Below, piece after piece: positions 10,517 to 62,458 of a DNA stretch of 64,000 nt. The notes beneath the pieces are model-generated. The model had not been told where the DNA came from and ran no database searches. It saw nothing but the letters and a program-made list of their open reading frames with translations. The position numbers and the translations under genes are program-made. The number at the start of each line of letters is the position of its first letter. The stretch's first letter is position 1. The DNA comes from Squalus acanthias (taxonomy: Eukaryota). The DNA is taken from positions 144,896,001 to 144,960,000 of the forward strand of contig CM059431.1 in assembly GCA_030390025.1 (NCBI GenBank), given 5' to 3'.

Positions 10517-13500
10517 CATAGGATTATATAGGATATACGGCACAGAAACAGGCCATTCGGCCCAACCAGTCCATGCCGCTGTTTATGCTCCACTCGAGCC
10601 TCCTCCCGTCTTTCCTTATCCACATCTATCAGTATAACCCTATATTCCCTTCTCCCTCATGTTTGTCCAGCCTCCCCTTAAATGCATCGATACTATTCGC
10701 TTCAACCACTCCCGGTGGTATCGAGCACCACATTCTCACCACTCCTTGGTAAAATAGGTTTCTTCTGAATTCCCTAATGGAATTCTTGGTGACTATCTTA
10801 TATTGATGACCTCTAGTAATGCTCTTCCCCACAAGTGGAAACATTCTCTCTGTATCCAATCTATCAGAACTTTTCATTATTTTATAGACCTCTATAAGGT
10901 AACCCCTCAGCCTTCTTTTTTCAAGAGAAAAGAGACCCAGCCTGTTCATCCTTGCCTGATATGTATAACCTCGCATTTCTGGTATCGTCCTTGTAAATCT
11001 TCTCTGCACCCTCTCCATTGTCTCTATATCCTTTTTTATAATATGGGGTCCAGAACTGTGCGCAGTACTCTAAGTGTGGTCTAACCTAGGCTCGATACAG
11101 GTTTAGCATAACTTCCCTACTTTTCAATTCTATCCCTATAGAAATAAACCCTAGTGCTTGGTCTGCATTTTTAATGGCCTTGCTAAACTGTGGCGCAACC
11201 TTTAGTGATTTGTGTATTTGTACTCCGAGATCACTTTGTTCCTCTACCCCACCTAGACTCACACCCTCCAAGTGATAAGTGACCTCCCTATTCTTCCTAC
11301 CTAAATAAAATACCTCAAATCTGTCTGTGTTGAACTTCATTTGCCAATTATTTGCCCATTCTGCAAGTTTATTGATGTCCTCTTCTAATTTGTTGCAGTC
11401 CCCCTCAGTATTAACTAACCCCGCCCCCCTCCCCCGATTTGTTATCATCTGCAAATTTAGAAATTGTGTTTTTGATTCCAAAGTCTAAACCATGAATGTA
11501 AATTGTGAACAGCTGGTCCAGCACTAATCCTTGTGGAACACCACTACCCACCTTCTGCCACTGTGAATAGCTACCCTTTACTCTCACTCTCTGCTTTCTG
11601 TCCTGAAGCCAGCCAGCAATCCATTCTGCTACTTGTCCCCTGACTCCGCATTCTCTGACCTTGTTCGTCAATCTGTTATGGGACACCTTATCGAAGGCCT
11701 TTTTAAAATCTAGATAAATTACATCTACTGCATTACCATTGTACACTCTCTTTGTTACCTCTTCAAAAAATTCAATACAATTTGTAAAGCAAGATTTTTC
11801 CTTTTGAAATCCATGCTGACTATTCATTATTATACATTTCGTTTCTAGATGTTCTTCTATTGTCTCCTTTAGTAGGGATTCCATTATTTTTCCTACCACC
11901 GATGTTAAGCTGAATGGTCTATAATTCCCTGGAAATGTTCTATCCCCCTTCTTAAATATCGGTATTACGTCAGCTATCCACCAGTCCTTCGGCACTGCAC
12001 CTTTTCTAACGAATTATTAAATATGCGTAATCATGCCTCTGCTATCTCTTCGCTAGATTCTTTTAAAGTCGTGGATGCAATCCATTCGGAACAGGGGTCT
12101 TTGAGTTTGATTAGTTTATTTAATATATCCCCTTTTTTAAAAATGCACTTATCTCATTAATTATTTCATCATCCAATGTAATGTCCACCTGTTCTATCTC
12201 CCTGGTAAATACTGAAGCAAAATAATGATTTAATATTTCTGCCATCTCCCTATCGTTACCTGTGGTACTGTCCTGTCCATCCCTTAATGACTCTATTCCC
12301 ATCCCAACCTTCCTTTTTTATTGATGTGGCTGTAAAATATGTTGCTATTTTGTTTAATGTTCCTTGATAATTGAATTTCATAGTTTCTCTTTGCCTTCCT
12401 AATTTTTTTTACTTCTCTTCTAATCCCTTCGCATTCTCTCTTACCATGCATTCCCATGCTATCTATGTACTTAATGTATGCCTCTTTCCTTAGCCTTAAT
12501 TGTCTCCTTGTGTCTTTATTCATCCACGAAGTCTCGTTACTGTTTAGCTTGTTTTTTCCTTTCAACGGAATATATTTTTCCTGCACTCTGTTGAACACTG
12601 CTTTAAATGTTTCCCATTGTCGTTCTACATCGTTGTTTGGCAATATTGTTTCCCATTTTATCTTCGCAAGTTCTATTCTCAACCCCTCAAAATCAGCTTT
12701 TCTCCAATCTATTAACTTGTTTTTTGTCATTCTTATGTCCTTCTCTATGGTCATCTTAAAGCGTATTATATTATGGTTACTATTGCCTATATGTTCCCCT
12801 AGTTTTACTCATCTTATCTGATCTGGCTCATTCCCCATAACTAGATCCAACAGCGAATCCTCCCTTTTTGAGCTTTTTTAAATATTGTGTTAGAAAGGAG
12901 TCCTGTAGAAATTATAGGAACTAAATTTCCTCATCCCCTTTACCTACCTCTTCTTTCCATTTAATATCGTGGTATTTCAAATTCCCCCATGATTATTATT
13001 CTATGTTTTTTACTCATTTCCGTAATATTTTTGTATAGTTCTTCCCCTACCATTACAGAAGCCAGTCTTCAGCCAATTCGATTCACTCCACGTGATATCA
13101 AGAAACGGCTGAGCGCGTTGGATACAGCAAATGCTATGGGCCCCAACAACATCCCTGCTATCGTGCTGAATACGTTTGCTCCAGAACTAGCCGCGCCTCT
13201 AATCAAGCTGTTCCAGTAAAGCTTCAACACTGGCATCTATCCAACAATGTGGAAAACTGCACAGGTATGTCCTGTCCACAAAAAGCAGAACAAATCCAAA
13301 CCGGCCAATTATCGCCCCATCAGTCTCAGGAGGCACTTAATCACCAATAACCTGCTCACTGATGCCCAGTTTGGGTTCTGTCAAGTGCACTCAGCTCCCG
13401 ACCTCATCAGAGCCTTGGTCCAAACATGGACAAAGGAGCTGAATTCCAGAGGTGAGGTGAGAGAGACTGCCCTTGACATCAATGCAGCATTTGACCGAGT

Positions 13501-16918: not shown

Positions 16919-19900
16919 CAGGTGAGGGGAAATTTGGAAATCTTAAGAGAAAGTTCAAGGCAATAGAGCAGTGTAGCGATTTGGATAATAATACGCAGAG
17001 TGTGACAGGAAGGGACAGAGAGTTTAATGGTTGCAGTGCAGCAGGGAATAAGGTCAAAGCAGGGAATAAAGTTAAAACAAAAATTAAAGGCTCTTCATCT
17101 GAATGCACGAAGCATTCATAACAAGTCAGATGAGCGAGCGACACAAATAGAGATAAATGGGGTTGATCGAATAGCCATTACAGAGACATGGTTGCAAGGT
17201 GGCCAAGGATGGGAACTAAATGTTCCAGGGTACTTGACGTTTCGAAAAGACAGGTAGAATGGAAAAGGAGGGGGAGTAGCCCTGATAATAAAGGATGACA
17301 TAAGGACAGTAGCGAGAAAGGATCTCGGCTCGGAAGATCAGGAAATAGAATCAGCATGGGTGGAGATAAGGAATAACAAGGGCAGAAAACACTGGTAGGT
17401 GTAGTATATAGGCCCCATAACAGTAGCTATACCGTTGGGCAGAATTTTAATCAATAAATAGTAAGAGCTTGCAACAAAGGTAATGCAATAATCTTGATGG
17501 AATTCAATCTTCATATCGACTGGACAAATCAAATTGACAAAGGTAGTCTGAAGGATGTGTTCATGGAATGTATCCGGGACAGTTTCCTGGAACAATATGT
17601 CATGGTAGCGACCAGAGAAAAGGCTATTTTAGATCTTGTGTTATGCAATAAGACAGGGATAATTAGCAATCTCATAGTAAAGGATCTTCTGGGGCAGACT
17701 GGTCATAATATGATAGCATTTCACGTTAATATTGAAAGCGACATGCCTAAGTCCGAAACGAGAGTCTTAAACTTAAATAAAGCAAATTACATAGGTATGA
17801 GGTAAATTGGTTAAGGTAGATTGAAAAAATAGATTAAAAGGTATGGCGGAAATAAGCAATGGCTAGCATTTAAATAAATATTTCCTAATTCTCAACAAAA
17901 ATCATTTCCGTTGAGAAACAAGAACTCCACGGGAAAAGTGATACAACCGCGACTAACTAAAGAAGTTAAGGATAGCATTAGATTGAAAGAAGAAGCTTAT
18001 AATGTTGCACGGAATAATAGTAAGCCTAAGGATTGGGAGAGATTCAGAAACCAGCAAAGGTTGACCAAAAAATTGATAAAAAGGGAAAAAATACAATATG
18101 AGAGAAAACTAGCAAGAGATATAAAAGCAGATTTTAAGAGTTTCTACAAGTATGTAAAAAGGAAAAGAATAGCAAAAGTAAACGTTGGTCTCTTAGAGGC
18201 TGAGACAGGACAAATTATTATGGGGAATAAGGAAATGGCAGGAAAATTAAACAAATATTTTGTATCTGTCTTCACAGTAGAAGACACAAAAAGCATACCA
18301 AAATTGTGGGAACCAAGGGTCTAATGAGGGTGAGGAACTTAACATAATTAATATAAGTAGAGAAAAAGTACTAGAGAAACTAATGGGACTAAAAGCACAC
18401 AAATCCCCTGGACGTTACGTCCTACATCCCAGGGTTCTAAAAGAAGTGTCTGAAGAGATAGTGGATGCATTAGTTTTGATCTTCCAAAAATCCCTATATT
18501 CAGAAATGGTCCAAGAGGATTGGAATGTCGCAAAAGTAACACCTCTATTGAAGAAAAGAGGGAGAGAAAAAAACAGGGAACTCCAGGCCAGTTAGCCTGA
18601 CATCAGTCGTCGGGAAAATGCTGGAATCCATTATTAAGGAAGTGGTATCATGTCACTTCGAAAATCATAACATGATTAGGCAGAGTCAACATGGTTTTAT
18701 GAAAGGGAAATCGTGTTTGACAAATTTATTAGAGTTTTTTGAGGATGTAATTTGCAGGGTTGATAAAGGGGAACCAGTGGATGTAGTATATTTGGATTTC
18801 CAAAAGGCAATCGATAAGGTGCGACATAAAAGATTATTACACAAGATTAGGGCTCATAGGGTTGTGGGTAATATAGTAGCATGGATAGAGTATTGGTTAA
18901 TGGACAGAAAACAGAGAGTAGGGAAAAACGAATCTTTTTCAGGTTGGCAGGCTGTAACTAGTGGGTTGCCGCAAGGATCAGTGTTGGAGTCTCAGCTATT
19001 TACAATCTATATTAATGAACAAGATGACGGGGCCAAGTGCAATGTTTCCAAGTTTGCTGATGATGCAAAGCTAGGTGGGACAGTAAGCTGTGAGAAGAGC
19101 ACAAACAATCTGCAAAGGGATAGAGATAGACTAGGTGAGTGGGCAGTAAGGTGCAGGTGGAGTATAAAGTAGGTAATTGTGAGGTTATTCACTTTAGAAG
19201 GAAGAATAGAAAAACAGAATATTCTTTTAAATGGTGAGAAAATTTCAAATGTTGGTGTTCAGAGAGATTTGAGTGTAATCGTGCAAGAAACACAAAAAGC
19301 TAGCATGCAGGTACAGCAAGCAATCAGGAAGGCAAATGGCTTGTTTGCCTTTATTGCAAGGGGGTTGGAGTATAAGAGTAAGGAAGTCTTGCTATAATTG
19401 TACAGTGCCATCGTGAGACTACACCCGGAGTACTGTGCACAGTTTTGGTCTCCTTATCTAAGGAAGGATATACCTGCCTTGGAGGCATTGCAACGAAGGT
19501 TCACTAGATTGATTCCTGGGATGAGAGGGCTGTCCTATGATGAGAGATTGTGTAGAATGGGCCTATACTCTCTGGAGTTTAGAAGAATGAGAGGTGGTCT
19601 CATTGAAACATACACGATTCTGAAGGGGATTGACAGGGTTGAGGCTGAGAGGTCGTTTCCCCAGGCTGGAGTATCTAGAACTAGGGGACATTTTCTCAGG
19701 ATAAGGGGGAGGCCATTTAAGACTGAGATGAGAAGGAATTTACTCACTCAGAGGGCTGCAAATCATTGGAATTCTCTGCCCCAGAGGGCAGTGAATGCTG
19801 AATCTTTGAGTATATTCAAGGCTGAGATAGACAGATTTTTGAACTCTAGGGGAATCAAGGGATATGGGGATTGGGCGGGAAAGTGGAGTTAGAAACATAG

Positions 19901-22250: not shown

Positions 22251-22944
22251 GACCCGGAAATTCGTCTTGGGCGGTGGCATAATGCGGGCGGTATCGAATC
22301 GGCCGCCGTTATACGCAGCGCCGGATATTCAGCTCTATTGCAGTCAATATGAACGCGGCCTCACTTCCTGCGGCCCTCGTGAAGAGCGCCACAGCCTGGA
22401 GTAGGGGCTTATGATGACGTAGTGGGGCTTTCAGAGGTGAATCTTTTTCGTCACACTTCAGACACTTACAGCCAATGGGTGCAGCGCTCAGCCGATTCCA
22501 TGTCGTGTCACCAATTATATTCAGGAACTCCTCCATCTTTCACCCCTTGCAGTTTGATTGTTAAGCAGTTTTTTTTTATTTTTGTATTTCCAGGATAACA
22601 AATACATCGCTAATACTTATGCTTCCTGTTTTTTCGCTATCATTAGATTTGTGGACATCAGCTCTGGGCATTGCTTTGTATCTTTAATCTAACGGAAATT
22701 GTATTTAATTCCGGCCAAGGGAATCCCTTTAGATTCTTCTAGCATGGAGTGGAACAAGAGGCAGATTCCAACGCTAAGTGCGGCCGTCAGACTCAGGACG
22801 GAACTCTGTAATCCTCCACTAACAGTCTACAACCACAGAACTCTCTGCACTGTGATACAAACACATCCAACGTTATCACCGTGTTCCGACTTCTAGATTC
22901 ACAAAGGAAAACTTCGCGCCAGTTACACCCGAACTATTCCAGTC
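22251..22944. mobile_element. Possible MITE
   Basis: It truncates copy C of the triplicated unit; imperfect inverted ends gacccggaaattcg / cgaactattccagtc. Confidence 0.4.
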
Positions 22945-23232: not shown

Positions 23233-23894
23233 CAGGAACTGAAATCTGACACACAATCCAAATGCTGTCACTGCCCAATTGACTCTCTGATAGCAGAGTC
23301 TTGAAAGATTTGGTGGCTACTTCACCAGTGTCGGCACTTTATCAATTAGTATTCGGAATATATGGAACAAGATAATACCTCCGTATCTACTGAACTTCCC
23401 TCCGCTTTATTTAATTCTGCCGAATAAGCCACAGGATCAGGTGAACTTTCAAACTTCAATGGGGCGTAAACTGCCGGTAGGATATTTTACACCCGGCTAC
23501 ATCTCTTTTTCGTTATAGTCAGTGGAAAGAGAATTTCGGCCGGGTGTATGACTCTCAGGCAGTCCGCTCCAGACAGATTTCAGCTCATTCCGAAATTTAA
23601 AATGACGTTAGTTTCAGAATATTCAGATTCCACCAAAACCAAATGGATCGTTAACTAACTTTACAAATTGAGTTTAAAACAGTTTAAATTGGGGTCGCTG
23701 ATCAGAACAACTAGACCTGGAGGTTCGGCTGGAAATAAAGAACTTGGGTTGAAATGAGCCACGGGAGGAGAGGCCAAACTGACAGCATCGCATCGCTCGC
23801 CTGTTCTACGCTGCTATGGAACTGAATATTGGGCGGTGCCTATAACAGGAAGCGATGTGAATCTGCCTTACTGCACAAGTCGAGTTTCTACCCC

Positions 23895-24058
23895 TTGCAT
23901 TTATATAGCGCCTTTCAAAACCTCAGGATGCCATAACGTGTCTCACAGGTAACAAAGTACTTTTAAAGTGTAGTCACTGCAGTAATGTGAGGAAATGCAG
24001 AAGACAATTTTCTCACAGCAAATCCCAAAAACAACAATAAGATAAACGACCAGATAAG
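23895..24058 (-). mobile_element. Deu-type SINE 3' fragment
   Basis: ttgcatttatatagcgcctttc... matches 3585-3745. Confidence 0.75.
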
Positions 24059-24364
24059 ACACAATTGCGCATGGACTGGGGACACGAAACGATCGGTAGC
24101 ACATCGATCGCCTGTTATACGCTGCGCCCGATATTCAATCGAACTGAATATCGAGCCTGTCGTATAACGGTCGGCAAATGCGATTCGTCGGGTTTGCACC
24201 CCTTTCCGTGTCCAATTGCACCCTCAATGATCTGTTGTAATTCTGTTTGTTCAGGAATAAATACTGACCATGACATCATGCGGAGATGCCGGCGTTGGAC
24301 TGGGGTGGACAAAAATGAGAAGTCGCACAACACCAGGTTATAGTCCAACAGATTTATTTAAAAT

Positions 24365-24402
24365 TACAAGCTTTCGGAGCTGTCGCCCCTTCGTCAGGCA
24401 AA
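24365..24402 (-). ncRNA. Minimal type I hammerhead ribozyme motif (minus-strand copy)
   Basis: Reverse complement of the motif at 24683-24720. Confidence 0.7.
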
Positions 24403-24682
24403 GTTACTGTGAGAGAATCTATCAGAATTCACAGAATATAAAAACAGAGAAAATGCGTAGATTAAATCTTTCCCTACATCAAAGACACACTAAGAGCACA
24501 GCCAAGACAATGAGATGTGTCCCAGGGGGTCCAGGTGTTCTGACGCGTTGGACCCCCTGGGACACATCTCATTGTCTTGGCTGTGCTCTTAGTGTGTCTT
24601 TGATGTAGGGAAAGATTTAATCTATGCATTTTCTCTGTGTTTTTATATTCTGTGAATTCTGATAGATTCTCTCACAGTAACT

Positions 24683-24720
24683 TTGCCTGACGAAGGGGCG
24701 ACAGCTCCGAAAGCTTGTAA
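24683..24720 (+). ncRNA. Minimal type I hammerhead ribozyme motif
   Basis: ttgc-CTGACGA-aggggc gaca gctcc-GAAA-gc-TT-gtaa: CUGANGA and GAAA core, stem II ggggc/gctcc, palindromic aagctt in place of stem III, stem I ttgc/gtaa. Confidence 0.72.
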
Positions 24721-26347
24721 TTTAAAAAAAATCTGTTGGACTATAACCTGGTGTTGTGCGACTTCTCATTTTTGACCATGACATCGGAAGATTAGAGATA
24801 CCATGCAAGGCCGACTCGTGTAACAATTAGGAACTCTTTAGCATAATCCCAGGCTCAGTTACTGTTTTACTTGTGGATCCGAGTCAATTATAGACAGGCA
24901 ACGTAAAAGCTCTAACCTGAACTACCACCGCCGCTTCCTTCCCCTTGGGTTCAGGAGGAAAATTCCCGCACTGGGCGCAAAACTACGACACCAGGAGAAC
25001 TACATGCAGCCGGTAGATGAAAGAAAGCGCAAAAAAAGGCTGTGAAAAATAAAACACATTCCAACCAATAAATGTTAAAGGAAATTTCAACCAACAGATT
25101 AAACAATATATGCGGTGTCCATCAATCAGAAAAAGCGTGGAAAGATCGAGTGGACACTGCGCTGGCTGTATTCTATGGGTAACCGGGTATATTGAAGATG
25201 AGACCAGTGGAAGCAGTCCACGACATCTCCTCTGATGATCTTACACATCCTGCAGTGTGAACGGTGGATTTGACCAATCCCAGGGGCAGCCTCTCCTCCA
25301 CATCTTCCAATCACTAACACAAACTCCGAAGCTTATATTGGAAAACAGTTTCAGCTGAGGCATAACAGGAGGGCGTAAAAAATGTTAGTTAATTGGCACA
25401 AGTTTTCATCTGATGTCTTTGCACCGAACAACGCTCTCAAACCCAGGTCCCCAGTGGGGCTGGGCGGAGCTCCCAATACACCGCCTTGCACTGGGGATAC
25501 CCGGTCAACAACAGCTGGTAAAAGGCAGGGGGTATTACATATTACTGTCTGTGTGCAAACACAGGCAGAGGATTGTTCCAGCTCAATACCTGACTATTAC
25601 ATTGTACAGATCGTTGAATTAACTTCCCCTAGTATTTAGGATATTAGAAATTCTTACACAGCTTTACCTGTGTAACCAGGTGACTGATTCAGATTAACTG
25701 CTGTCAGGTTCCCTGTGACAAATTTCGTAAAAGCAAATAAAAGCTTTATTTTAGTGTTGCTGGGCAACCTTCGATTATTTCTCAGTAATAGAGACATCAG
25801 AAAAAAAACGGGCAAAACGAGGCAACTTCAGTTAACATTCATAAAATGGTGAAACATTGCGACACTGTGAAGGAGACAGCGGCATCGCTCCTTATTCCCA
25901 GGAGACGGGATGAGGCGGTCGGTGCCGCTGCAATCAGTCCAAGCAACACATTCAGCAAACCTCTGAGAAAAAGTAAGGTCACCAGGAGTTCTAAACCACC
26001 GAATCTTATCCTAAATCTGGCGGATATTCCTATCAATTACACGGTAGAATTAAATTACAGTCCTCCCTCTGTCAGATATTAAACCCGTTGATCAAATATT
26101 CTGTTCCATTATTAAACTTCATTTATCACTGACACTTTTCATACTAAAGGCTTATTTGTCAGGAGTCATCAGTTAATGAACTGTGAAAACCCAACGTCAA
26201 TGTTGAGTTAAATGACACGGGGCACACATAGATTCGCGTTCCTGTGAGATATTACAAGAACCATCTTGATGTGGCTGTAAGGAGAGAGAACCCCAGTTTA
26301 AGCTGGAATAGGAGCTAAAAGTGAATTCTAATGTTGCAAAGAAGGCT

Positions 26348-27262
26348 CTACTTCGAAATTCTTTTATTTTTAACCAATCTTAGAATCTGTGTCCAGGGAG
26401 ATTTCAGCAACTTCTTCAGCTTTTCTTTGAGTTTCCTCTGGGTCGCTGCATAAATACATGTGTTCAGACAGGAACTCAAAAGCTTCAGCATGGCTCCGGT
26501 TTCAGTGGCGATATAGTCTGTGTTTGTGAGGTCACCTCGGTAATAATTGATGTTTGTCAGTCCGGCAGTTGCAAAACTCACTACAGCTGTCAACCACAAC
26601 AGTATAAAACTGCCCGATATAGTAAACAGTAAAATTATAGATTTCCTTCGGTTCACCATCTCTGGGTCACACTGATTCTCACTCGCGTGACTCCGGAGTC
26701 CCCTGCGAGCTCTACTGGCCACTAAAATACGACTGATTGTCAAAGAATTGCACAAGGCGATTAAAGTAAAAGGAAGCCAAACTACCCAGACAGTGAGAAA
26801 CCAGAGGTAGGCTACACCTGGAGGTGAGGAAAAGAAGGCCACACTTGACAGGCAGCCCCACTGCACCTTGTTAATTATTTGCTGAGGTTCATACGCAAAC
26901 AAAAAGGTGATGTTTTTCAACAAGATCAGAACAGAGAACGTTGTTACAACCGCGACCGCAGTACTTTCGGTGCAATACTTTGTTTTAAACTTCTGGCAGC
27001 AGATAACAACAAATCGGTCAAATGTGAAGGAGACGGTGAACCAAACAGACAAATCGAGGGTGACAGCAGTCATGAATAGAATGAACTTACACACGGGAGT
27101 TTGATGCAGGAATGAACCTGGAAAGTGATAACTGAGAATGTGATACACCATTACATTGAAGATCATGACCAGTAGATCTGCTGTTGCCATGGCCACCATG
27201 TAGACAGAGATACCCTTGGAAAGGCCGCAGTTTCCTCGGGAGAGAATCACCATTGTCACCAA
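26348..27262 (-). CDS. GPR139-like rhodopsin-class GPCR, paralog 1, exon 2 (open 304-codon frame; gene possibly inactivated by loss of the splice acceptor)
   Basis: Hydrophobic TM pattern with MATADLLV (TM2), FTFDRF (DRY-equivalent), a Cys pair, WLPF (TM5) and SSCLNTCIY (TM7). Confidence 0.88.
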   Translation of the reverse strand: MVTMVILSRGNCGLSKGISVYMVAMATADLLVMIFNVMVYHILSYHFPGSFLHQTPVCKFILFMTAVTLDLSVWFTVSFTFDRFVVICCQKFKTKYCTESTAVAVVTTFSVLILLKNITFLFAYEPQQIINKVQWGCLSSVAFFSSPPGVAYLWFLTVWVVWLPFTLIALCNSLTISRILVASRARRGLRSHASENQCDPEMVNRRKSIILLFTISGSFILLWLTAVVSFATAGLTNINYYRGDLTNTDYIATETGAMLKLLSSCLNTCIYAATQRKLKEKLKKLLKSPWTQILRLVKNKRISK

Positions 27263-27441
27263 GTGAGGTTAGCTGATTAAGGGGAACGCGGGAAGTGCAG
27301 ACACACGGTTCACGAGTTGGTTCCAGTCACTACCGACTGTGCTGACTTCAGCGAAACACGTTACCTTATTCACCAGACTGTAAGAACAGGGGGGACAATT
27401 AACACCGATTAACAACAAACGGGTTTAAATGGCTCACTAAC

Positions 27442-40580: not shown

Positions 40581-42227
40581 TGCCCCGACCTTCCGGACAG
40601 ACCTGTAAACGGAATTGTCGTTACCAATACAAATGATACTTTGTATTGTGAATTTGCATTCCAGATTATTCTTAATCTGTTAAATGTTTCTTCTGTATCT
40701 TTGCCTTCTGGTATATGTAATAAACGTATGTGGAGTGTACACGACTACACTGAGCGCAATTCGGAAAGAGGTTTAGGTGGAATGATATTGAGACTATGTG
40801 GGAACATGATGAAATAATGTGCAAGCAATTAAAAGGGTTGCTTCAAGGAATAAATAGGCAAACAGGGGATGTTATATCGTAACAAGGAGAGTTTCTGGTT
40901 TCCATAAAGAAATGGCAGAAGGGATGGTGATAAAATTAATACGATAATCAATCAGAACAACAAACACTAAAAGGAACAATTGATGTCAAAGGCAAATGTT
41001 TACAATATGTGTGAAGGGTTTGTGCTGAATCAGGTTCAGAAGTGGTTAACTGATAGAAAAAAACAATCGGATCACAATTTTTATATTAGACGAACAAGTG
41101 AAGTTCCGGACGTCAGATGGGAATATAAATTGGTGTAAAATGCGAAGATTTGAATCGAAGCATTAGTTGGCATAGGAGATACATATAAAATATACAACAC
41201 ACTGGAGTTCTTTTAGGACAGGCTTGCGATCTCCTGAAGAAGCCCTTGCTACGGGAGTTATAATGTTATTATCAGTACCTCTATCTCATATACCTTGCAT
41301 TTAAGGATTAGTGTTTTATTATAACATTGACATGATTTAATGAAATGCATTAATAAGATGTTTCAATGTTTCCTAGTCCTCGAACTTGTATCAATGGTAA
41401 AGGATGTATGACGATATCTTATTATACCTCCACATAAAGGCAATGTGGTGATATGACAATATTCTACAGAAACCAAACAAGGATCACTTGTAAATCAGGC
41501 CAAACTGTAAATAGAATTATAAAACAGGCAAGTACCCTGAAGCAGACAATGGAAACAATGGAGGAGTCGGGAGGAGGGGCACTCTCACCTCGAGAAGGGT
41601 TCAGATCACCAGGTTAGACCGCCGTAGGTGGATTGTAGTCTTATTCAGAGAGGTTTCTGGTCATCTCGGCTCTATTACAAAACTACAACATTAACTGACG
41701 CATTGATCTGTGCGGTACACATTATCTAACTAATCTAGCAACGAGAGTAACAGGATACACCACCGCGCTCCTCAAATGCTCTCTGAATTTCGTCTGGGTC
41801 ACTCCATAAATGAAGGTGTTTGTGCAGCAGCTGAAAAGCTGAATTACTGTCCCAACATTTTTTGCCTGAATAAAACGAATAGACGTTTCCAGGTCTGTGT
41901 AAAGACATCGGCTGAGAATGAAGACCGGAGTAGTTGTCATCCAACACAGAATAAAACTGCCCGACAGGGTGAAGAGCAGAATGATGGATTGCCTACGATT
42001 CTCCATCTCTGGATCTCTCTGAATCTCGCTATTACTCCGGGCCCTGAGCCCCCTGCGGACTCTACTGGCCGCAATAATCTGTCTGACGGTCAGAGCATTA
42101 AGGAGCAAAATGAGAAAGAAAGGAAGCAGCGGCTTCAACAGACGGTCCAACCAGTAAAACCCCTCAAACGCTTCCGACATGGGAAGGGATTGTTTCCCCG
42201 TACACCTCAGACTCCCGCGAACATAAT

Positions 42228-42968: not shown

Positions 42969-43529
42969 AATAAGTTGATTCCATATACAGGAAATAAAAG
43001 GGGATGTTCTTTAAACGGAACCCCAGATATATTGTGAAAATAACTACCGCCGCAATTTTCGGGGTGCAATATTTCAACTTAAATTCCGGGCAGCAAATGG
43101 CTACAAAGCGATCGAAAGTGAAAGCGACGGTGAGCCAAACAGAACAATCCAAAGCAACCTGACACAGGACATAATGGACAAGACAGAATGGAGCCGGTTT
43201 CAGGAATTAGATTTTCCAATAAATTCTAGTAATCTGGTACATCAGGACTTCAATAATCACCACCATTAAATCCGCTACTGCCATCGCCACCAGGTAGCGA
43301 GTGACACATTTGGAGAGACCGCAATTTCCTCGGTACAGGATGGAAATCGCCACCAGGTTAACTTGAATAAAGAGAGAAAGAAATGTTATAATTATGTTAA
43401 ACCACAAAATTACAATCAACCGGAATGTGTGAGCAACTAAAAGCTTCCTTTCTTTCATCCCATGAGGACAATTGCTCATTAATGTTTGCGCGATTTTTTT
43501 AACTAACATGTTAGAAAATAAGGAAATAC

Positions 43530-45889: not shown

Positions 45890-48262
45890 ACTAACAGTAC
45901 ACAACTCTATCATTACTGGTGTTGACTCTACCCTAACAAAACTGGTGGTGACCCTACACTAACATTACTGGTGGTGACAATAATCTAACATTACTGATGG
46001 TGACCCTACTCTAACATTACTGGTGGTGACACTACTTTAAGATTACTGGATGTGACCCTATTCTAACATTACTGATGGTGACTCTACACTAACGTTACTG
46101 GTGGTGACTCTACACAAGCATTACTGGTGGTGACCCAACTACATCGTTATTGGTGCTGACCTTACTCTAACATTACTGGTGGTGAACCTCTTCTAACTAA
46201 ACTGATGATGACATTAATGCAACATTACTTTTGTTGACTCTACTTTAACAATACTGTTGGTGAATATATTCTAACATTACTGGCGGTGACCCTACTATAA
46301 CATTACTGGTGGTGTTCCTACTCTAACATGACTGGTGGTGTCTCTACTTTAACATGATTGGTGGTGACCCTAATCTAACATTACTGGTGGTGACCCTAAT
46401 CTAACATTACTTATGGTGACTCTACTCTAACATTACTGGTGGTGACCCTAATCTAACATTACTGATGGTGACTCTACTCTAACATTACTGCTGGAAACCA
46501 CACACTGACATTAATGCTGATGACTCGGATGTAACTTTAAATGTGGGCACGCTACTCTGACATTGCTGATTTTGACCAAACTGTAACATTACTGGGGCTA
46601 ACTCAACTCTATTATAACTGGTGGTTACGATACGCTAACATTACTGGTGGTGACTCTATTCAAACATTACTGGTGGTGTCCCTACTCTAACATTACTGTT
46701 GGTGACGCTGCTCTAACGTTAGTAGTGATGATTCTACTCTATCATTAAATGTGGTGGCGCTACTCTAACATTAGTGCTGGTGACTATACTCTAACATTAT
46801 TGGGTATGACTCTACCCTAGAATTACTGGTTTTGACCTTACTCTAACATTACTGGTGTTGACAATACTCTAGAATTGCTGGTGGTGGCCCTACTATTACA
46901 TTACTGGGGGTGTGCCTACTCTAACATTACTGCTGGTGACTATACTCTAACATTACTGGATATGACTCTACCCTCGCTTTACTGGATGTGACCTTACTCT
47001 AACATTACTGGTGGTGACAATACTCTAGAATTGCTGGTGGTGGTCCCACTAAGACATTACTAGGGTTGTGCCTACTCTAACATTACTGGTGTTTATTTTA
47101 TATTAACGTTAATGTTGGTGTCTCTGCACTAACATTACTGGTGGTGAATCAAATCTAACCTAACTGATGATGACTTTAATGGAACATTACTGGTGCTGAC
47201 ACTAATTTAACATTACTGGTGCTGATCTTGCTCTAATATTACTGGTGGTGACTCGACTCCAACATTACTGATGATGAACCTACTCAAGTTTTTAATGGTG
47301 ATGATTCTTCTCTAACATAACTGCTGGTGACTCTACTCTAACGTTACTGGTGGTGACTATACACTGATTTTAGTGGTGGTGATCCTACTCTAACATTATT
47401 GTTTGTGACTCGACTCTAATATAAATGGTCGTGACTCTACTCTAACATTACTGGTTGTTACCCTACTCTAAAATTGCTGGTTTTGACTCTACTTTCACAT
47501 TGCTGGTGGTGACACTACTCTGATGATAGAATAAGATAATCAAGAGTAAAGTTAAATAGAATTCACAAGCAGTAATATTAGAGTAGAGTCAAAACTAGTA
47601 ATGTTAGAACAGAATCATCACGAGAAAATTTAGGGCAGATTCACCACCAGTAATGTAAGTGTAGGGTCGCAACCAGTAATGTTAGAGTCTGGACAACACA
47701 AGTAATGTTAGAATAATGCCACCACAAGTAATGTTAGAGTAGAGATACCACCAGTAATGATAGAGTAGAGGCACAAAAAGTAATATTACTGTAGAGTCAG
47801 CACCAGTAACGTTAGAGTATGTTCACCACCTCCAATGTTAGTGTATGTTCACCACCTCTAATGTTACAGTCAGATCAAGACCAGTAAAGTTAGGTTAGTT
47901 TCAACACCAGTACAAATAGAGGAGGATCATCGCCAGTAATATTAGAGTAGGGTCACTACTAGTTATGTTAGAGTAGGGTCAGCATCAGTAATGTTAGAGA
48001 ATGTTCGCCACCTGTAATGTTACAGTCGGGTCAAAACCAGTAAAGTTAGGTTATGTTCACCACCAGTAATAATAGGGTAGGGACACCACTAGTAATGTTA
48101 TAGTAGGATCACTATCAGTAATGTTAGAATAGGGTCACAACCAGTAATGTTAGAGTAGACTCACAACCAGTAATGTTAGAGTAGGTTCACCAGAAAAATG
48201 TTTGAGTAAGTTCACTACCATTAATGTTGGAGTAGGGTCGACACCATTAATATTAGAGTAGA
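45890..48262. repeat. 26-bp minisatellite (ctaacattactggtggtgaccctact)n with an internal strand inversion at about 47530
   Basis: Forward units span about 45890-47522 and reverse-complement units about 47540-48262. Confidence 0.95.
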
Positions 48263-48264
48263 AC

Positions 48265-51200
48265 GGGAATGGTACCGTAGTGGTAATGTCACTTGGCTGG
48301 TAATCCACAGGCGTGGATTAATGATCCAGAGACGTGAATTCAAATCCCTCCACGGCAGCTGGGGAATTTAAATTCAGTTAATTAATTAAATCTGGAATAA
48401 AAAGCTAGTATCAGTAATGGTAACAGTGAAACTATCGGATTGTCATAAAAACCCTGGTTCACTAATGTCTTTTAGGGAAGGAAATCTGCCGTCCTTACCT
48501 GGTCTGGCCTATATGTGAATCCAGACCCACAGCGATGTGGTTGACTCTTAACTGCCCGCTGAAATGGCCGAGCACGTCACTCAGTTGTAACTAACCGCTA
48601 CAAAACAAAATAATAAGAATGAAACCGGACGGACCACCCGGCATGAACCGCAGCACCGGCTGCGGACACAGAAACGGCACACCCAGCCCAGTCAACCCTA
48701 CAAAGTCCTCATCACCAACATCTGGGGACTTGTTCCAATATTGGGAGAGCTGTCCCACAGACTAGTCAAGCAACAGCCTGACATAGTCATACTCACAGAA
48801 TAATACATTTCTGCCAATGTCCCGAACTCCTCCATCACCATACCTGGGTATGTCCTGTCCCACCTGCAGGACAGACCCACCAGGGGTGGCGGCACAATGG
48901 TATACAGTCGGGAAGGAGTGGCCGTGGGTGTCCTTAACATTGACTCTGGACCCAATGAAGTCTCATGGCTCCAAGTCAAGCATGGGCAAGGAAACCTCCT
49001 GCTGATTGCCACCTACCACCCTCCCTCAGCTGATTAATCAGTGCTCCTCCATGTTGAACACCATTTGGAAGACGCAGAGAGTAGCAAGGGCACAGAATGC
49101 ACTCTGGGTGGGGGACTACAATGTCCATCACCAAGAGTGGCTCGGTAGCACCACTACTGACCGAGCTGGCCGAGTCTTGAAGGACATAACTGCCATTCTG
49201 GGCCTGCGACAGGTGGTGAGTGAACCAACACGAGGGAAAAACCTACTTGACCACGTCCTCACCAATCTACCTGTCGCAGATGCATCTGTCCATGACAGCA
49301 TTGGCAGCTGTGACCACCGCACAGTCATTGTGGACACAAAGTCCCATCTTCACACTGAGAATACTCTCCATCGTGTTGTGTGGCACTACCACCGTGCTAA
49401 ATGGGATAGATTCAAACAAGATCTAGCAGCTAAAAACTGGGCATCCATGAGGCGCTGTGGGCCATCAGCAGCAGCAGAATTGTATTGCACCACAATCTGT
49501 AACATCATGGCCCGCCATATCCCTCACTCTACCATTACCACCAAGCCAGGGAGCCAAACCCTGGTTCAACAACGAGTGTAGAAGAGCATGCCAGGAGCAG
49601 AACCAGGCGTACCTAAAATTGAGGTGCCAACCTGGGGAAGCTGCAACACAGAACTACATGCATGCTAAAAAGCGGAAGAAGAATGCGATAAGACAGGGCT
49701 AAGCGATCCCACAATCAATGGATCAGATGAAAGCTCTGCAGTCCTGCCACATCCAGTCGTGAATGGTGGTGGACCATTAAACAACTAACGGGAGGAGGAG
49801 GCTCCAAGAATATCCCCATCCTCAATGATGGTGGAGCCCAGCACCTGAGTGCAAAAGACACGGCTGAAGCGTTTGCAACCAACTTCAACAAGAAGTGTCG
49901 AGGGGATGATCCATATCGGCCTACTCCCGAGGTCCCCACCATCACGGAAGCCAGTCTTCAGCCAATTCGATTCATTCCACGTGATATCAAGAAACGGCTG
50001 AGCGCACTGGATATAGCAAAGGCTATGGGCTCTGACAACATCCCGGCTATCGTGGTGAAGACTTGTGCTCCAAAATTAGCTGCGGGTCTAGCCAAGCTGT
50101 TCCAGTACAGCTACAACACTAGCATCTATCCGACAATATGGAAAACTACCCAGGTATGTCCTGTCCACAAAAAGCAGGACAAATCCAACTCGGCCAATTA
50201 CCGCCCCATCAGTCTACTCTCAATCATCAGCAAAGTGATGGAAGGTGTCATCGACAGTGCTATCAAGCAGCACTGGCTCACCAATTACCGGCTCACTTAT
50301 GCCCAGATTGGGTTCCACCAAGACCACTCGCCTCCCGAACTAATTACAGCCTTGTTACAAACATGGACAAAGGAGCCGACTTCCAGATATGAGGTGAGAG
50401 TGACTGCCCTTAACATCAAGGCAGCATTTGAACGAGTGTGGCATCAAGGAGCCCTCGTAAAACTGATGTCAATGGGAATCGGGTGAGGGGGCGAAATCTT
50501 AAATGGCTGGAGTCATACCTAGCACAAAGGAAGATGGCGGCGTTGTTGGATGTCAGACATCACAGGCCCAGGACATCGCAGCAGGAGTTCCTCGGGGCAG
50601 CGTCCAAGGCCGAACCATCTTCAACTGCTTCATCAATGACCATCCCTCCATTATAAGATCAGAAGTGGGGAAGTTCGCTGATGACTGCACTGGCTTCAGT
50701 GCCATTCGCAAGTCCTCAGATAATGAAACAGTTCATTCCCACAAGCAACAAGACCTGGTCAACGTTCAGGCTTGGGCTGATAATTGGCAGGTAACATTTG
50801 CGCCACACAAGTGACAGGCAATTACTATCTCCAACAAGTGAGCTTCTAACCAACGCCCCCTGACATTCAACGGCATTACCATCGCCGAAATCTCCACCAT
50901 TAATGTACTGGGGATCTCCATTGAACAGAAACTTAACTGGACCAGCCACATTAATACTATGGCAACAAGAGCAGGTCAGAGGCTGGCTATTCTGCGGCGA
51001 GTGTCTCACCTCCTGACTCCCCAAAGCCTTTCCGCAATCTGCAAGGCGCAAGTCAGGAGTGTGATGGAATATTCTGCACTCGCCTGGATGAGTGCAGCAC
51101 CAAAAACATTCAAGGAGCTCGACACCATCCAAGACAAAGCAGCCCGCTTGATTGGCACCACATCCACTACCTTAAACATTCACCCCGTCCACCAACATGA

Positions 51201-51574: not shown

Positions 51575-54500
51575 ACGGAGGAGCACTGTCACATCCAGTG
51601 TTAGTGTAGGGGTACCAATAGTACCGGAGGTGCACGATCGGCTCTTTTATAATTTTATACTTACGACTATTAGGGGAGGTGCACGGTTAACATTAATGTC
51701 AGTGTAGTGACACCACTATGACTATAGGAGCACGCGAATATCGAGTGGAAGTTGATCGCACCACCAGCACCAGACGTGTCTGGTCATCTCTTGCATAAGT
51801 GTAGGGTAGCACTCGTACCATAGCAGCACGGTCAGCTCTCGTGTAGGTGTAGCGTTCCAGGAGTACCTGAGGAGCACGGTCAACTGTAGTGCAACTATAG
51901 GGTTCCACGAGTAACTGAGGAGCACGGTCAACTGTAGTGTAAGTGTAGGGTTCCAAGGGTACTTGAGGAGCACGGTCAACTATAGTGTATGTGTAGGGTT
52001 CCACTAGTACCTGAGGAGCACGGTCAAATGTAGTGTAAGTTTAGGGTTCCACTAGTACCTGAGGAGCACGATCAAATGTAGTGCAAGTGTAGGGTTCCAC
52101 TAGTACCTGAGGAGCACGATCAAATGTAGTGTAAGTTTAGGGTTCCACTAGTACTTGAGGAGCACGATCAAATGTAGTGTAAGTGTAGGGTTCCACTAGT
52201 ACCTGAGGAGCACGGTCAACTGTAGTGTAAGTTTAGGGTTCCACTAGTACTTGAGGAGCACGATCAAATGTAGTGTAAGTTTAGGGTTCCACTAGTACCT
52301 GAGGAGCACGATCAAATGTAGTGTAAGTGTAGGGTTCCACTAGTACCTGAGGAGCACGGTCAACTGTAGTGTAAGTTTAGGGTTCCACTAGTACTTGAGG
52401 AGCACGATCAAATGTAGTGTAAGTTTAGGGTTCCACTAGTACTTGAGGAGTACGATCAAATGTAGTGCAAGTGTAGGTTTCCACTAGTACCTGAGGGGCA
52501 CGGTCAACTGTAGTGTAAGTGTAGGGTTCCACTAGTACCTGAGGAGCACGGTCAACTGTAGTGTAAGTGTAGGGTTCCACTAGTACCGGAAGAGCACGGT
52601 CAACTGTAGTGTAAGTGTAGGTTTCCAAGGGTACCTGAGGAGCACGGTCAATTGTAGTGTAAGTGTAGGGTTCCACTAGTACCTGAAGAGCACGGGCAAC
52701 TGTAGTGTAAGTGTAGGGTTCCACTAGTACCTGAAGAGCACGGACAACTGTAGTGTAAGTGTAGCGTTCCACTAGTACCTGAAGAGCACGGGCAACTGTA
52801 GTGTAAGTGTAGGTTTCCACTAGTACCTGAGGGGCACGGTCAACTGTAGTGTAAGTGTAGGGTTCCACTAGTACCTGAGGAGCACGGTCAACTGTAGTGT
52901 AAGTGTAGGTTTCCACTATTACCTGAGGGGCACGGTCAACTGTAGTGTAAGTGTAGGGTTCCACTAGTACCCGAGGAGCACGGTCAACTGTAGTGTAAGT
53001 GTAGGTTTCCACTATTACCTGAGGGGCACGGTCAACTGTAGTGTAAGTGTAGGGTTCCACTAGTACCCGAGGAGCACGGTCAACTGTAGTGTAAGTGTAG
53101 GATTCCCCGAGTACGTGAGGAGCACGGTCAACTGTAGTGAAAGTGTAGGGTTCCACTAGTACCTGAGAAGCACGGTCAACTGTAGTGTAAGTGTAGGGTT
53201 CCACTAGTACCCGAGGAGCACGGTCAAATGTCGTGTAAGTGTAGGGTTCCACTAGTACCCGAGGAGCACGGTCAACTGTAGTGTAAGTGTAGGGTTCCAC
53301 TAGTACTTGAGGAGCACAATCAACTGTAGTGTAAGTGTAGGTTTCCAAGGGTACCTGAGGAGCACGGTCAAATGTAGTGTAAGTGTAGCGTTCCACTAGT
53401 ACCCGAGGAGCACGGTCAACTGTAGTGAAAGTGTAGGGTTCCACGAGTACCTGAGGAGCACGGTCAACTGTAGTGTAAGTATAGGGTTCCACTAGTACCT
53501 GAGGAGCTCGATCAAATGTAGTGTAAGTATAGGGTTCCACTAGTACCTGAGGAGCACGGTCAAATGTAGTGTAAGTTTAGGGTTCCACTAGTACCTGAGG
53601 AGCACGGTCAACTGTAGTGTAAGTGTAGGGATCCACTAGTACCTGAGGAGCACGGTCAACTGTAGTGCAAGTGTAGGTTTCCACTAGTACCTGAGGAGCA
53701 CGGTCAACTGTAGTGTAAATGTAGGGTTCCACTAGTACCTGAGGAGCACGGTGAACACTGGTGCAAGTGTAGGGTACACAAATAACGAAGGATACATCTA
53801 GTTTAAATGTAGGATTACCACTAGTGCCAGTGGAGCACGGTCACATCTATTTAAATGTAGAGGTACAAGTATTGCAGGTGGAGCACGCTGACATCTAGTA
53901 TAAGTTACCACTCTTAGTGGAGGAGCACAGTCACATCCAGTTTAAGTGTAGGGGTAACACCACACTTAAACTAGGATGTAACAAGAGGTAGCAAATGTAA
54001 CACCGCTATTCAAGAAAGGATGGAAAGAAAAAACAGGGAACGACTGGTCAGTTAGCCTGACATACATCGTCGGGAAAATGCTGGAATCCATTATTAAGGA
54101 TGTGGTAACAGGGCACTTAGCAAATTATAAGATGATGAGGCAGAGTCAACATGCTTTTATGAAAGGGAAATCGTGATGTGCAAATGCATTAGTTATTTGA
54201 GGATATACCTAACAGGATTGATAAAGGGGAACCAGTGGATGAAGTATATTTCGATTTTCAAAAGGCATTCGATAAGGTGCCATTAGAAAAGTTGTTACAC
54301 TAGATACGGGATCATGGGGTTGGGGCTAATATATTAGACTGAGCAGAGGATTGATAAAGGAAAGATAACAGACAACAGGAGTAAACGGGACATTTTCAGC
54401 TAGGCAGGCTACTAAGGATCATTGCTGTGGCCTCAGCTATTTGCAATCTATATTAATCGCTTAGATGGATGTAATGTATCCAAGTTTGTGGCGATACAGA

Positions 54501-56513: not shown

Positions 56514-57935
56514 ATCGGACAACAAACTATTTTGCTAATCAAAAAGAGTTACTACCCGATCCTCGCAGCTGTCGGTGTCCCCGGTGAGCCATTGTAAAAT
56601 GTTTGTTGTTAATCGGGGTTAACTGTCTCCTCTTCATACAGCCTGTTGGCTAATGTAACGTGATTTCTAGATGTCAACATTACACAGTCGGTAGTAACTG
56701 GAACCAACTAATGAACCGGGTGTCTGCACTTTCCAAGTTTCCCTTAATTCGATAATATCACTGATGTTACGATGTTCTTTGGAGCTCCAACTCAAGGATT
56801 TTAGCGGATTTCCGGACCGTCTTGTCCCCCCGTGCAGAGTGAGCGTTGCAGCAGCTCATTAAACTGTGTGGGTGGGTTTCCCAGGTAATGGCTCCAATAT
56901 TAATCCTGTTCTCACACTGTTCCGTGTAGATAATCGCACTGAATGGAGCAAAATGCTCTCAACAGTTTTCTCCATATATATTTCAAAACAGACACTGGAA
57001 CTTTATTTCTCTCCTCTCTGTTTCTTACAAAGAACTTGGTGACAATGGTGATTCTCTCCCTAGGAAACTGCGGACTTTCCAAGTGTATCTCTGTCTACAT
57101 GGTGGCCATGGCAACAGCGGATCTACTGGTCATGATCTTCAATATAATGATGTATTATATATTCAGTTATCACTTTCCACTTTCATTCCTGCCCCACACT
57201 CCGGTGTGTAAGTTAATTCTATACATGACTGCTGTCACCATCGATTTGTCTGTTTGGTTCACCGTTTCATTCACATTTGACCGATTTGTAGTTATCTGCT
57301 GCCAGAAGTTTAGAACAAAGTATTGCACCGAGAAAACTGCGGCCGGGGTTATAACAAACGTCTCGATCCTAATTTTTTTAAAGGACATCCCCGTATTGTT
57401 TGCATTTGAACCTGAACAAATAATTAACAAGGTGCAGTGGGGCTGCCGGAATAGTGGGGCTTTTTTTTCCTCACCTCCTGGTGTAGCGTACGTCTGGTTT
57501 TATTCTGCCTCGGTCGTTTGAATTCCCTTTACATTAATTGTCTTATTTAATAGTTTGACAGTCAGCCGTATTTTAGTGGCAAGTAGAGCCCGCAGGGGAA
57601 TCCGGGGCCACAGGAGTGAAAATCAGTGCGATCCACAGATGGAGAACCGAAGGAAATCCATCATGTTACTGTTCACTGTATCGGGCAGTTTTATATTGTT
57701 GCGGCTGACAAATGCCGTGAGTATGGTAACTACCAGACTGACAAACACGACTTATTACCGAGGTGACCGCACAGACCCTGGATATATCACCACTGAAACC
57801 GGAGCAATGCTGAAGCATTTGAGCTCCTGTCTAAACCCGTGTATTTATGCAGCGAACAAGAGGAAATTCAGAGAAGAGTTGAAGAATGTGGTGAAATCTC
57901 CCTGGACACTGATTCTGAGATTAGCTGGAAAATGA
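56514..57935 (+). pseudogene. GPR139-like GPCR paralog 3, pseudogene (exon 1 56514-56583; exon 2 about 57031-57935)
   Basis: Close paralog of gene 1. Start ATG appears changed to ATC at 56514, the expected acceptor AG reads AA at 57029-57030, and TGG is changed to TGA at 57519-57521. Confidence 0.9.
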
Positions 57936-60618: not shown

Positions 60619-62458
60619 ATAAGAACATAAGAAATAGGAGCAGGAGTAGGCCAATCGGCCCTTCGAGCCTGCTCCGCCATTCAATAAGATCATGGCTGAT
60701 CTGATCCTCACCTCAAATCTAAAGAACACAAGAAGTAGGAGCAGGACCCGGCCACTCAGCCCCTGGGCCCGCTACGCCACCCACAGGGCCTCGACCGATC
60801 CGAACTCAGCCTCATGTCCAATTTCCTGCCCGCTCCCCGTAACCCCTAATTCCCTTTACTTCTAGGAAACTTAATGATGTAGCTTCCACAGCTTCCTGGG
60901 GCAGCAAATTCCACAGACCTACTACCCTCTGAGTGAAGAAGTTTCTCCTCATCTCAGTTTTGAAAGAGCAGCCCCTTATTCTAAGATTATGCCCCCTAGT
61001 TCTAGTTTCACCCATCCTTGGGAACATCCTTACCGCATCCACCCGATCAAGCCCTTCACAATCTTATATGTTTCAATAAGATCGCCACTCATTCTTCTGA
61101 ACTCCAATGAGTAGAGTCCCAATCTACTCAACCTCTCCTCGTATGTCCACCCCCTCATCCCGGGGATTAACCGAGTGAACCTTCTTTGTACTGCCTCGAG
61201 AGCAAGTATGTCTTTTCTTAAGTATGGACACCAAAACTGTATGCAGTATTCCAGATGCGGTCTCACCAATACCTTATATAACTGCAGCAATACCTCCCTG
61301 TTTTTATAATCTATCCCCCTAGCAATAAAATCCAACATTCCGTTGGCCTTCTTGATCACCTGCTGCACCTGCATACTAACTTTTTGATTTTCTTGCACTA
61401 GGACCCCCAGATCCCTTTGTACTGCAGTACTTTCCAGTTTCTCGCCATTAAGATAATAACTTGCTCTCTGATTTTTCCTGCCAAAGTGCATAACCTCACA
61501 TTTTCCAATATTGTATTGCATCTGCCAAATCTCTGCCCACTCACCCAGCTTGTCTATATCACCTTGTAGGTTTTTTATGTCCTCCTCACTTTCTACTTTC
61601 CCTCCCATCTTTGTATCATCTGCAAACCTTGATATGTTACACTCAGTCCCCTCCTCGTTAATATAGATTGTAAAGAGTTGGGGACCCAGCACCGACCCCT
61701 GCGGAACACCACTGGCTACGGGTTGCCAGTCCGAGAATGAACCATTTATCCCAACTCTCTGCTTCCTGTTAGATAACCAATCCTCCACCCATGCCAGAAT
61801 ATTACCCCCAATCCAGTGATTTTTTTATCTTGAGCAATAATCTTTTATGTGGCACCTTGTCGAATGCCTTCTGGAAGTCTAAATACACTACGTCCATTGG
61901 TTCCCCTTTATCCACCCTGTACATTATGTCCTCAAAGAACTCAAGCAAATTTGTCAGACATGATTTCCCCTTCATAAAGCAATGCTGACTTTGTCCTATC
62001 AAATTATGTTTATCTAAATGTTCCGTTACTGTCTCCTTAATAATCGACTCCAAAATTTTACCCACCACAGATGTTAGACTAACTGGTCTATAATTTCCAT
62101 CTTTCTGCCTACTACCCTTTTTAAATAAGGGTGTCACATTAGCAGTTTTCCAATCTGCCGGGACCTTTGCTGATTCCAGGGAATTTTGGAAAATTATTAC
62201 CAAAGCATCCACAATCCCTATTGCCACTTCCCTCAAGACCCTAGGATGTAAGCCATCAGGTCCAGGGGATTTATCCGCCTTGAGTCCCATTATTTTACTG
62301 AGTACCAATTCCTTAGTGATTTTAATCGTATTTAGCTCCTCCCCCCCTAGAGCCCCCTGTTTGTCCAGTGTTGGGATATTCTTAGTGTCCTCTACCGTAA
62401 AGACTGAAACAAAATATTTGTTCAGCATTTTTGCCATCTCCATGTTTCCCACCATAAT
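60619..62458 (-). mobile_element. 5'-truncated, relatively young CR1 LINE
   Basis: ORFs 61802-62455, 61030-61788 and 60812-61042 carry full RT motifs; tail cataagaacataagaa. Confidence 0.96.

Follow-up and report, generated by a model that had tools for sequence, protein, structure and literature searches.

The segment 24265-24785 of the window, a 64,000-nt stretch of Squalus acanthias DNA, carries an insertion that is very probably a unit of an endonuclease-positive (EN+) Penelope-like retroelement. It is composed of two 5'-truncated pseudo-LTR copies in head-to-head orientation, each bearing one minimal hammerhead ribozyme motif, with a tail on one side only and a short flanking duplication. 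The locus is thus not an unusual element but a common, already described insertion layout of Penelope-like elements. The anatomy of the insertion, its empty sites, its repeat family and the form of its hammerheads are observed directly. The account as a whole, in which an inert EN+ Penelope-like copy would have been inserted by an enzyme supplied from elsewhere, through priming on two target strands and with its junction at an RNA hairpin, we hold to be likely, with slightly more reserve than the class assignment itself.

Local alignment of the left half of the segment with the reverse complement of its right half gave one inverted block, 24306-24533 against 24778-24549. Because the outer 6 nt of this inverted match enter the right flanking repeat, the arms of the element were delimited as 24312-24533 (222 nt, 3' end facing left, element sense on the minus strand) and 24549-24772 (224 nt, plus strand), with a 15-nt spacer at 24534-24548 (plus strand). 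This bears out the original prediction of near-perfect inverted arms around a spacer of that size. The two arms differ by three substitutions (24356/24728, 24360/24724 and 24457/24625) and by one 2-nt indel, which corresponds to a substitution rate of 1.35% with a Poisson interval of 0.3-3.9%; two of the three substitutions sit in an A/T run and could reflect slippage or sequencing error. The left arm alone is extended by a Penelope-type tail of 34 nt (24278-24311, minus strand) that has no partner on the right side, in agreement with the left-only extension of about 32 nt noted before. The unit is bordered by a perfect 13-nt direct repeat, the left copy at 24265-24277 being identical to the right copy at 24773-24785, which is the full length that had been proposed for this target-site duplication. 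Over the first 6 nt of the right copy, 5 positions are identical to those with which the element itself would continue. The duplication measures 13 nt, or 11 nt if the TG shared at the right junction derives from the element, and the left-only tail measures 34 nt, or 32 nt with the ambiguous TG given to the element.

The 3' ends of both arms point outward. Beyond the cut site of its hammerhead, the left arm with its tail extends for 90 nt and the tail-less right arm for 56 nt. At the centre, the region 24532-24550, spacer included, forms a small hairpin, and the dinucleotide CA at 24532-24533 may be regarded, from loose contig ends, as a 2-nt microhomology at the inversion junction. No tandem array was found at 24265-24785, and no second copy of the element was found within the 64-kb window.

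A similar organization is given for EN+ Penelope-like units in the available sections of PMC8557442, namely an adjacent inverted 5'-truncated copy and a tail of 30-40 bp, often present at one end only. The insertion shares with such units the head-to-head 5'-truncated copy, the one-end tail, the short duplication, the junction palindrome and the heavy 5' truncation. It differs from them in the extent of the truncation, which leaves no more than about 240 nt of the 3' end in either copy and thus no ORF. The rotifer examples in the accessible part of PMC3846280 carry inverted pLTRs, a 31-bp tail and a target-site duplication of 8-10 bp, compared with 11-13 nt here, and the palindromes at their inverted junctions are interpreted there as traces of self-priming. 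In an alga, new insertions of Penelope-like elements (PLEs) are very short and 5'-truncated, according to the portion of PMC9977147 at hand. Collectively, the head-to-head arms, the one-sided tail, the hammerheads and the published layout support a Penelope-like origin with inverted pseudo-LTR ends, as was originally suggested. Animal non-LTR retrozymes are comparable in being non-coding, in their type I hammerhead and in their kinship with PLE pseudo-LTRs. Retrozymes, however, consist of units repeated in tandem, head to tail, with their hammerheads on one strand (bioRxiv 10.64898/2026.07.22.740005, as far as its available text goes), whereas the present locus comprises one inverted unit, flanked by a target duplication and with its motifs on opposite strands.

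To compare the locus with related DNA, we used contigs from four of 20 sequencing runs, two of them from one organism (two studies) and one each from two others. At some fixed positions of the flanks, all four runs depart from the window sequence, and the empty sites described here are therefore homologous loci, orthologous or paralogous, and not this allele. Two empty-site joints were recovered, 24263>24772 in run X1 and 24269>24781, with three letters between, in runs X1 and X5. Both skip a net 508 nt, i.e. 521 - 13, which is the element plus one copy of the repeat. Flank contigs of X1 and X7 also end at 24275, within the repeat. The homologous sites in X1 and X5 are thus empty and shorter by exactly 508 nt and, together with the low divergence of the arms, this supports the relative youth of the insertion. 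The recency and the non-coding nature of the copy stand as predicted; the copy may come from a non-autonomous family or be a truncation of an autonomous one.

Fold-back reads can create near-perfect palindromes, and none of the contigs shown spans the junctions of this particular copy. Even so, an assembly or sequencing artefact is hardly credible as the source of the structure. A fold-back would mirror the flank instead of stopping at an element boundary with a 13-nt duplication and a one-sided tail; moreover, the unique right flank matches the empty-site contigs, and the arms differ from each other at four places.

The same contigs show that the arm belongs to a high-copy family. In X1, the depth of the element bins ranges from 54,784 to 3,456,508 vs 129-945 in non-repeat flank bins, depth being a sum over contigs and not a copy number. 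The last 110 nt, tail included, are about 10 times deeper than the remaining arm, which itself lies far above the flanks, in all four runs; deep repeat coverage over the tail bin 24270-24326 is likewise found in each of them. Twelve of the 15 joints listed (from a total of 120) connect left-arm with right-arm sequence at other centres, and the list of joints with inserted letters, with 12 of its 67 rows listed, adds four further left-to-right-arm joints. These joints, detected merely as skips, are read as other head-to-head insertions with centres of their own. The offsets between their two 5' ends range from 0 to 72 nt and do not exceed 17 nt in 11 of the 16 mapped rows listed, some rows being mirror views of a single joint. 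In six of these 16 rows one 5' end falls within 10 nt of the hammerhead core; the present copy starts about 155 nt upstream. Another joint, seen in X1 and X5, has its entry point into the window at 24274, inside the left repeat by four bases; this hints that element sequence may overlap the target at the left end too (24274-24277).

Loose ends located before 24532 (12 contigs, X1) and before 24541 (9 contigs, X5) roughly agree with each other, and in both cases the family runs on upstream in plus orientation. The spacer can therefore be read as a 5' prolongation of the right arm, with an overlap of 2 nt at the junction. On this reading it derives from the arm that lacks the tail, and the connection was made through 2 nt of microhomology. 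These data also bear on a different origin, in which the palindrome would move whole as a short non-autonomous unit, be it MITE-like, a fold-back element or a copied master palindrome. Such a unit would present a long near-perfect inverted repeat flanked by a duplication, as is seen here, and the sequence upstream of 24384, about 10 times less deep than the last 110 nt, may represent a distinct subfamily. On the other hand, the ends are made asymmetric by the 34-nt tail, so that symmetric terminal inverted repeats are lacking, the other joints have different centres, the loose ends show the family upstream of the centre, and the 64-kb window holds no further copy. We consider a mobile palindrome very unlikely and retain the EN+ Penelope-like assignment.

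When the two strands of the 64-kb window were scanned with a descriptor, exactly two minimal hammerheads were detected, at 24687 on the plus strand and at 24397 on the minus strand, with a chance expectation of 0.02 per window (100 dinucleotide shuffles). There is one per arm, and both contain the CUGACGA box, the GAAA box and the CUU site, which confirms the core, with its stem II and a 4-bp stem I, that had been recognized in each arm. In the right arm, the hammerhead occupies 24683-24720 (plus strand): stem I is formed by 24683-24686 paired with 24717-24720, the core 24687-24693 is followed by an extra A at 24694, stem II pairs 24695-24699 with 24704-24708, GAAA lies at 24709-24712 and the palindromic AGCU at 24712-24715. 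The cut site expected after 24716 is supported, with CUU found at this position. In the left arm, the hammerhead extends over 24362-24401 (minus strand), with the core starting at 24397 and a predicted cut after 24368; about 350 nt separate the two cut sites. A single unpaired base lies between the CUGACGA box and stem II, and the motifs also show G10.1-C11.1 and the palindromic 15.2-16.2. Stem II counts 5 bp and stem I 4 bp, each including one G.U.

In the available part of Cervera and De la Pena 2014 (PMC4209133), minimal hammerheads (min-HHRs) are characterized by the extra base between 9 and 10.1, by G10.1-C11.1 and by a palindromic 15.2-16.2, and dual min-HHRs are found on opposite strands, 100-700 bp apart. 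The motifs resemble the metazoan PLE pseudo-LTR hammerheads of that text in their core boxes, extra base, helix I of 4-5 bp and opposite-strand pairing distance, and are unlike its Schistosoma families in helix II, 5 bp here vs 7-8 bp. The sequence family of the arm was not found by name in the same part of the paper. The covariance-model check that had been suggested gave a negative outcome: Rfam hammerhead models produced no match at the gathering score in the window, nor at E values up to 10 in the region 23500-25500, probably because stem III is missing and an extra base is present.

At position 24685, A makes up 67-100% of the family depth and renders stem I fully Watson-Crick. Both arms of this copy carry G (C at 24399), the G.U version, and since they share this minority variant, they derive from a common source sequence. 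Loose ends at 24379-24380 reveal other versions of stem II in which pairing is still kept. When the window and two related contigs described below (L002 and L003) are compared, stem pairing is kept in 29 of 30 cells and two pairs are changed on both sides, a count drawn from only three sequences and equalled by 40 of 500 shuffles. The core, intact in this copy, may be under selection in the family. A pyrimidine run ending in CAG (24667-24677, plus strand) lies directly 5' of hammerhead stem I, is mirrored in the left arm and resembles a splice acceptor; in two of the joint rows, a 5' end falls exactly on 24677. In the D. virilis Penelope, an intron end maps to helix I (PMC4209133, available part).

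Relatives of the arm were searched for in sequence collections. The exact 23-24 nt arm pattern had 0 matches in the viral, metagenome and prokaryote genome collections. A degenerate hammerhead pattern retrieved three marine metagenome contigs, L001, L002 and L003, and 0 sequences from the genome and viral collections. L002 is 79% identical to the arm over 71 nt and is provided with the downstream 9-bp stem at the same offsets; L001 and L003 resemble the arm over the 45-nt hammerhead only (82% for L003). In L003, the same hammerhead form is located about 750 nt downstream of a GIY-YIG-like ORF. The nearest atlas clusters of this ORF (score 0.97) consist of GIY-YIG proteins, with the Pfam GIY-YIG domain assigned to 23-34% of their members, and no Pfam or NCBIfam model matched the ORF itself. 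L001 is a sibling contig with an inverted RT fragment (RVT_1, E 1.5e-5, under the family cut-off); this fragment gave chance matches only against PDB sequences and, in NCBIfam, a weak group II RT match along with chance matches, far below the cut-off. Searching the window with the L001 and L003 proteins returned nothing, and no protein matched the open frame of the arm when this was extended by 14 flank codons and used as a query, a weak test. The evidence tying the family to an RT/GIY-YIG ORF of Penelope type is thus indirect and runs through the 45-nt hammerhead of L001 and L003, not through the arm as a whole. In L002, the hammerhead-plus-tail module spans 886-1003 and the other ORFs look prokaryotic by eye; this contig is possibly chimeric.

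The whole unit is predicted to fold at -432.7 kcal/mol (z = -45.7), and the hammerhead region folds no better than shuffles (z -0.11 to -0.86). Stem II has a pairing probability of 0.0 both in the complete unit and in transcripts growing from their 5' end; in single-arm contexts the value is 0.03-0.66, depending on the boundaries chosen. The proposed sequestration of the ribozyme in the hairpin is therefore supported computationally. Since the two hammerheads are on opposite strands, no transcript holds both and no dimer can form in cis; moreover, in any transcript the complement of the hammerhead is made before the hammerhead. Self-pairing of the stem III palindrome is predicted at -6.5 kcal/mol over 6 bp, four of which would be those of stem III, and could take place solely between separate molecules. 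Minimal hammerheads showed no cleavage as monomers and low cleavage as dimers in the available part of PMC4209133. In-place cleavage of a read-through RNA, with its single hammerhead buried in a 220-bp hairpin, seems unlikely from these models. Given one hammerhead per strand and their burial in the hairpin, this copy most likely does nothing, the hammerheads being passengers of the pseudo-LTRs. Incidental dsRNA from read-through may possibly arise and would not count as function.

The surroundings of the insertion are relevant to a possible host role. The nearest ORF, 26348-27268 (minus strand), encodes a 7tm_1 protein closest to chordate GPR139-like clusters, and its stop lies about 1.6 kb from the insertion. 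It belongs to a GPR139-like 7tm_1 cluster that also contains 57033-57923 (plus strand), whose protein is 76% identical to it, and a third member in two pieces, 42985-43359 and 41725-42099 (minus strand). The insertion could in principle serve the host 3' of the GPR139-like gene as a small-RNA precursor, an editing substrate or a ribozyme switch: its hairpin is very stable and lies downstream of the minus-strand ORF, and Penelope copies yield small RNAs in rotifer and fly, according to the accessible part of PMC3846280. Nevertheless, related genomes lack the insertion at the homologous sites, the strand of the gene carries an AATAAA at 25750, between the stop codon and the insertion, and the matches to miRNA models are those of a generic hairpin, far under the gathering score (best 40.9 vs 81 bits). 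A host function is accordingly very improbable, and inertness remains the preferred reading.

Several other repeats occur in the window. A second high-copy repeat fragment at 23871-24041 is SINE-like by its depth and A-rich loose ends. Short imperfect palindromic repeats at 22306-22340, 23767-23849 and 24078-24173 are mutually related (72-92%), and 24109-24173 holds a 29-bp inverted pair with a 7-nt loop. Two opposite-orientation arrays of a 26-nt unit fill 45904-48261 and meet near 47540, and a 48-nt minisatellite (51796-53775, 41 copies, 90% match) contains a 383-codon open frame without a family match. Broken LINE-type fragments (RVT_1, Exo_endo_phos_2) are located at 11414-12013, 18552-19169, 49006-50483 and 61033-62461.

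For the mode of insertion, the Poseidon element of Anolis carolinensis provides the nearest model. In the available part of Frangieh et al. 2024 (PMC11167929), its PAc protein cleaves and extends both strands, and RT starts at two internal sites bounding the tail. One of these start regions lies at 111-118 nt of the ORF and the HHR cut at +26, so that subtraction places the former 85-92 nt past the cut. According to the same text, the PAc hammerhead is protein-assisted and its cleavage is dispensable for insertion, the RT start site is not homologous to the cut DNA, and cleavage at 5'-ATT-3' is preferred. The present unit is similar in that the hammerhead lies upstream of the putative tail-bounding starts, the tail ends 90 nt past the cut as compared with 85-92 nt, and a stem-loop surrounds the start region. 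Two differences from what is given there for PAc are apparent. The PAc ORF starts inside the hammerhead, whereas here there is no ATG at this place and stops are found in all three frames; and the PAc target sites are AT-rich and homology-free, whereas the present target shows microhomology and, with 6/13 G+C in its duplicated part, is not AT-rich.

We infer the enzyme, the priming sites and the joining step, as well as the inactivity of the copy, in the following way. An RT/GIY-YIG protein, supplied from elsewhere, would nick both target strands about 13 nt apart. The top-strand 3' end would prime cDNA at a distal internal RNA start, giving the tail-bearing arm, and the bottom-strand 3' end would prime at a proximal start, 34 nt upstream, giving the tail-less arm; this proximal priming was possibly aided by the 5/6 match between target and RNA. 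In such a two-primer fit, the distal and proximal start sites are 90 and 56 nt past the cut. Both cDNAs would stop early, on reaching the small hairpin that the RNA forms some 150 nt 5' of the hammerhead, and would be joined via the 2-nt CA/TG pair that closes this hairpin; fill-in would then yield the head-to-head repeat and the target duplication. We rate this two-primer route as somewhat more probable than its alternatives taken together. Since the spacer appears to be native to the tail-less arm and to be joined through the microhomology, two-strand priming is favoured over a simple fold-back of one strand. Folding back of a single cDNA that began at the tail end was rejected, as the spacer would be antisense, and a fold-back from the right end alone was rejected for want of a template for the tail.

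The joining step might have taken another course within the same class, the bottom-strand cDNA snapping back at the hairpin, copying itself and then annealing to a shorter tail-bearing top-strand cDNA. The spacer would then be the snap-back loop, and both primers would be those of the two-primer route. Indeed, the two 5' ends are just 15 nt apart here, the other long-arm joints show 2 and 13 nt, and the small offsets prevail in 11 of the 16 rows; yet the joint list consists mostly of short arms, for which small offsets are to be expected in part, certain rows mirror one another, five of the 16 have offsets of 35-72 nt, and all this evidence comes from the 15 of 120 and 12 of 67 rows listed. 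The G shared by both arms at 24685 points to a single source sequence, but a common source RNA accounts for it equally well. Self-priming has been proposed from junction palindromes (PMC3846280, available part); in the present case, the minus strand across the spacer pairs weakly, -17.6 vs -24 kcal/mol for the plus strand when both are folded as RNA. We therefore regard this course as possible, with roughly half the weight given to the two-primer route. The offsets of the long-arm joints (2 and 13 nt elsewhere, 15 nt here), although few and from selected rows, make us lean towards coupled 5' ends. A more specific version, in which the tail-less cDNA snaps back at the RNA-encoded hairpin and pairs with the tail-bearing cDNA, each target strand being primed at its own start site, is slightly more doubtful still. 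If it is true, the family as a whole should display coupled 5' truncation points, and the spacer should belong to the tail-less arm.

The tail region can form two crossing 9-bp stems, of -9.1 and -9.9 kcal/mol, a result equalled by 7 of 200 shuffles. L002 retains one of these stems at identical offsets (equalled by 19 of 200 shuffles) but not the other, and L003 behaves like shuffled sequence (129 of 200 equal it). A conserved two-stem switch in this region is not supported.

As a single locus, this insertion is one of many truncated Penelope-type ends and matters little alone. It provides a presence/absence marker inside the GPR139-like receptor cluster. Above all, it is a clean specimen for the way in which Penelope elements form inverted repeats and one-sided tails, a question named in the available parts of PMC8557442 and PMC11167929. 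Furthermore, the deep repeat coverage suggests that the genomes of this group contain enough copies for the junction model to be tested by counting.
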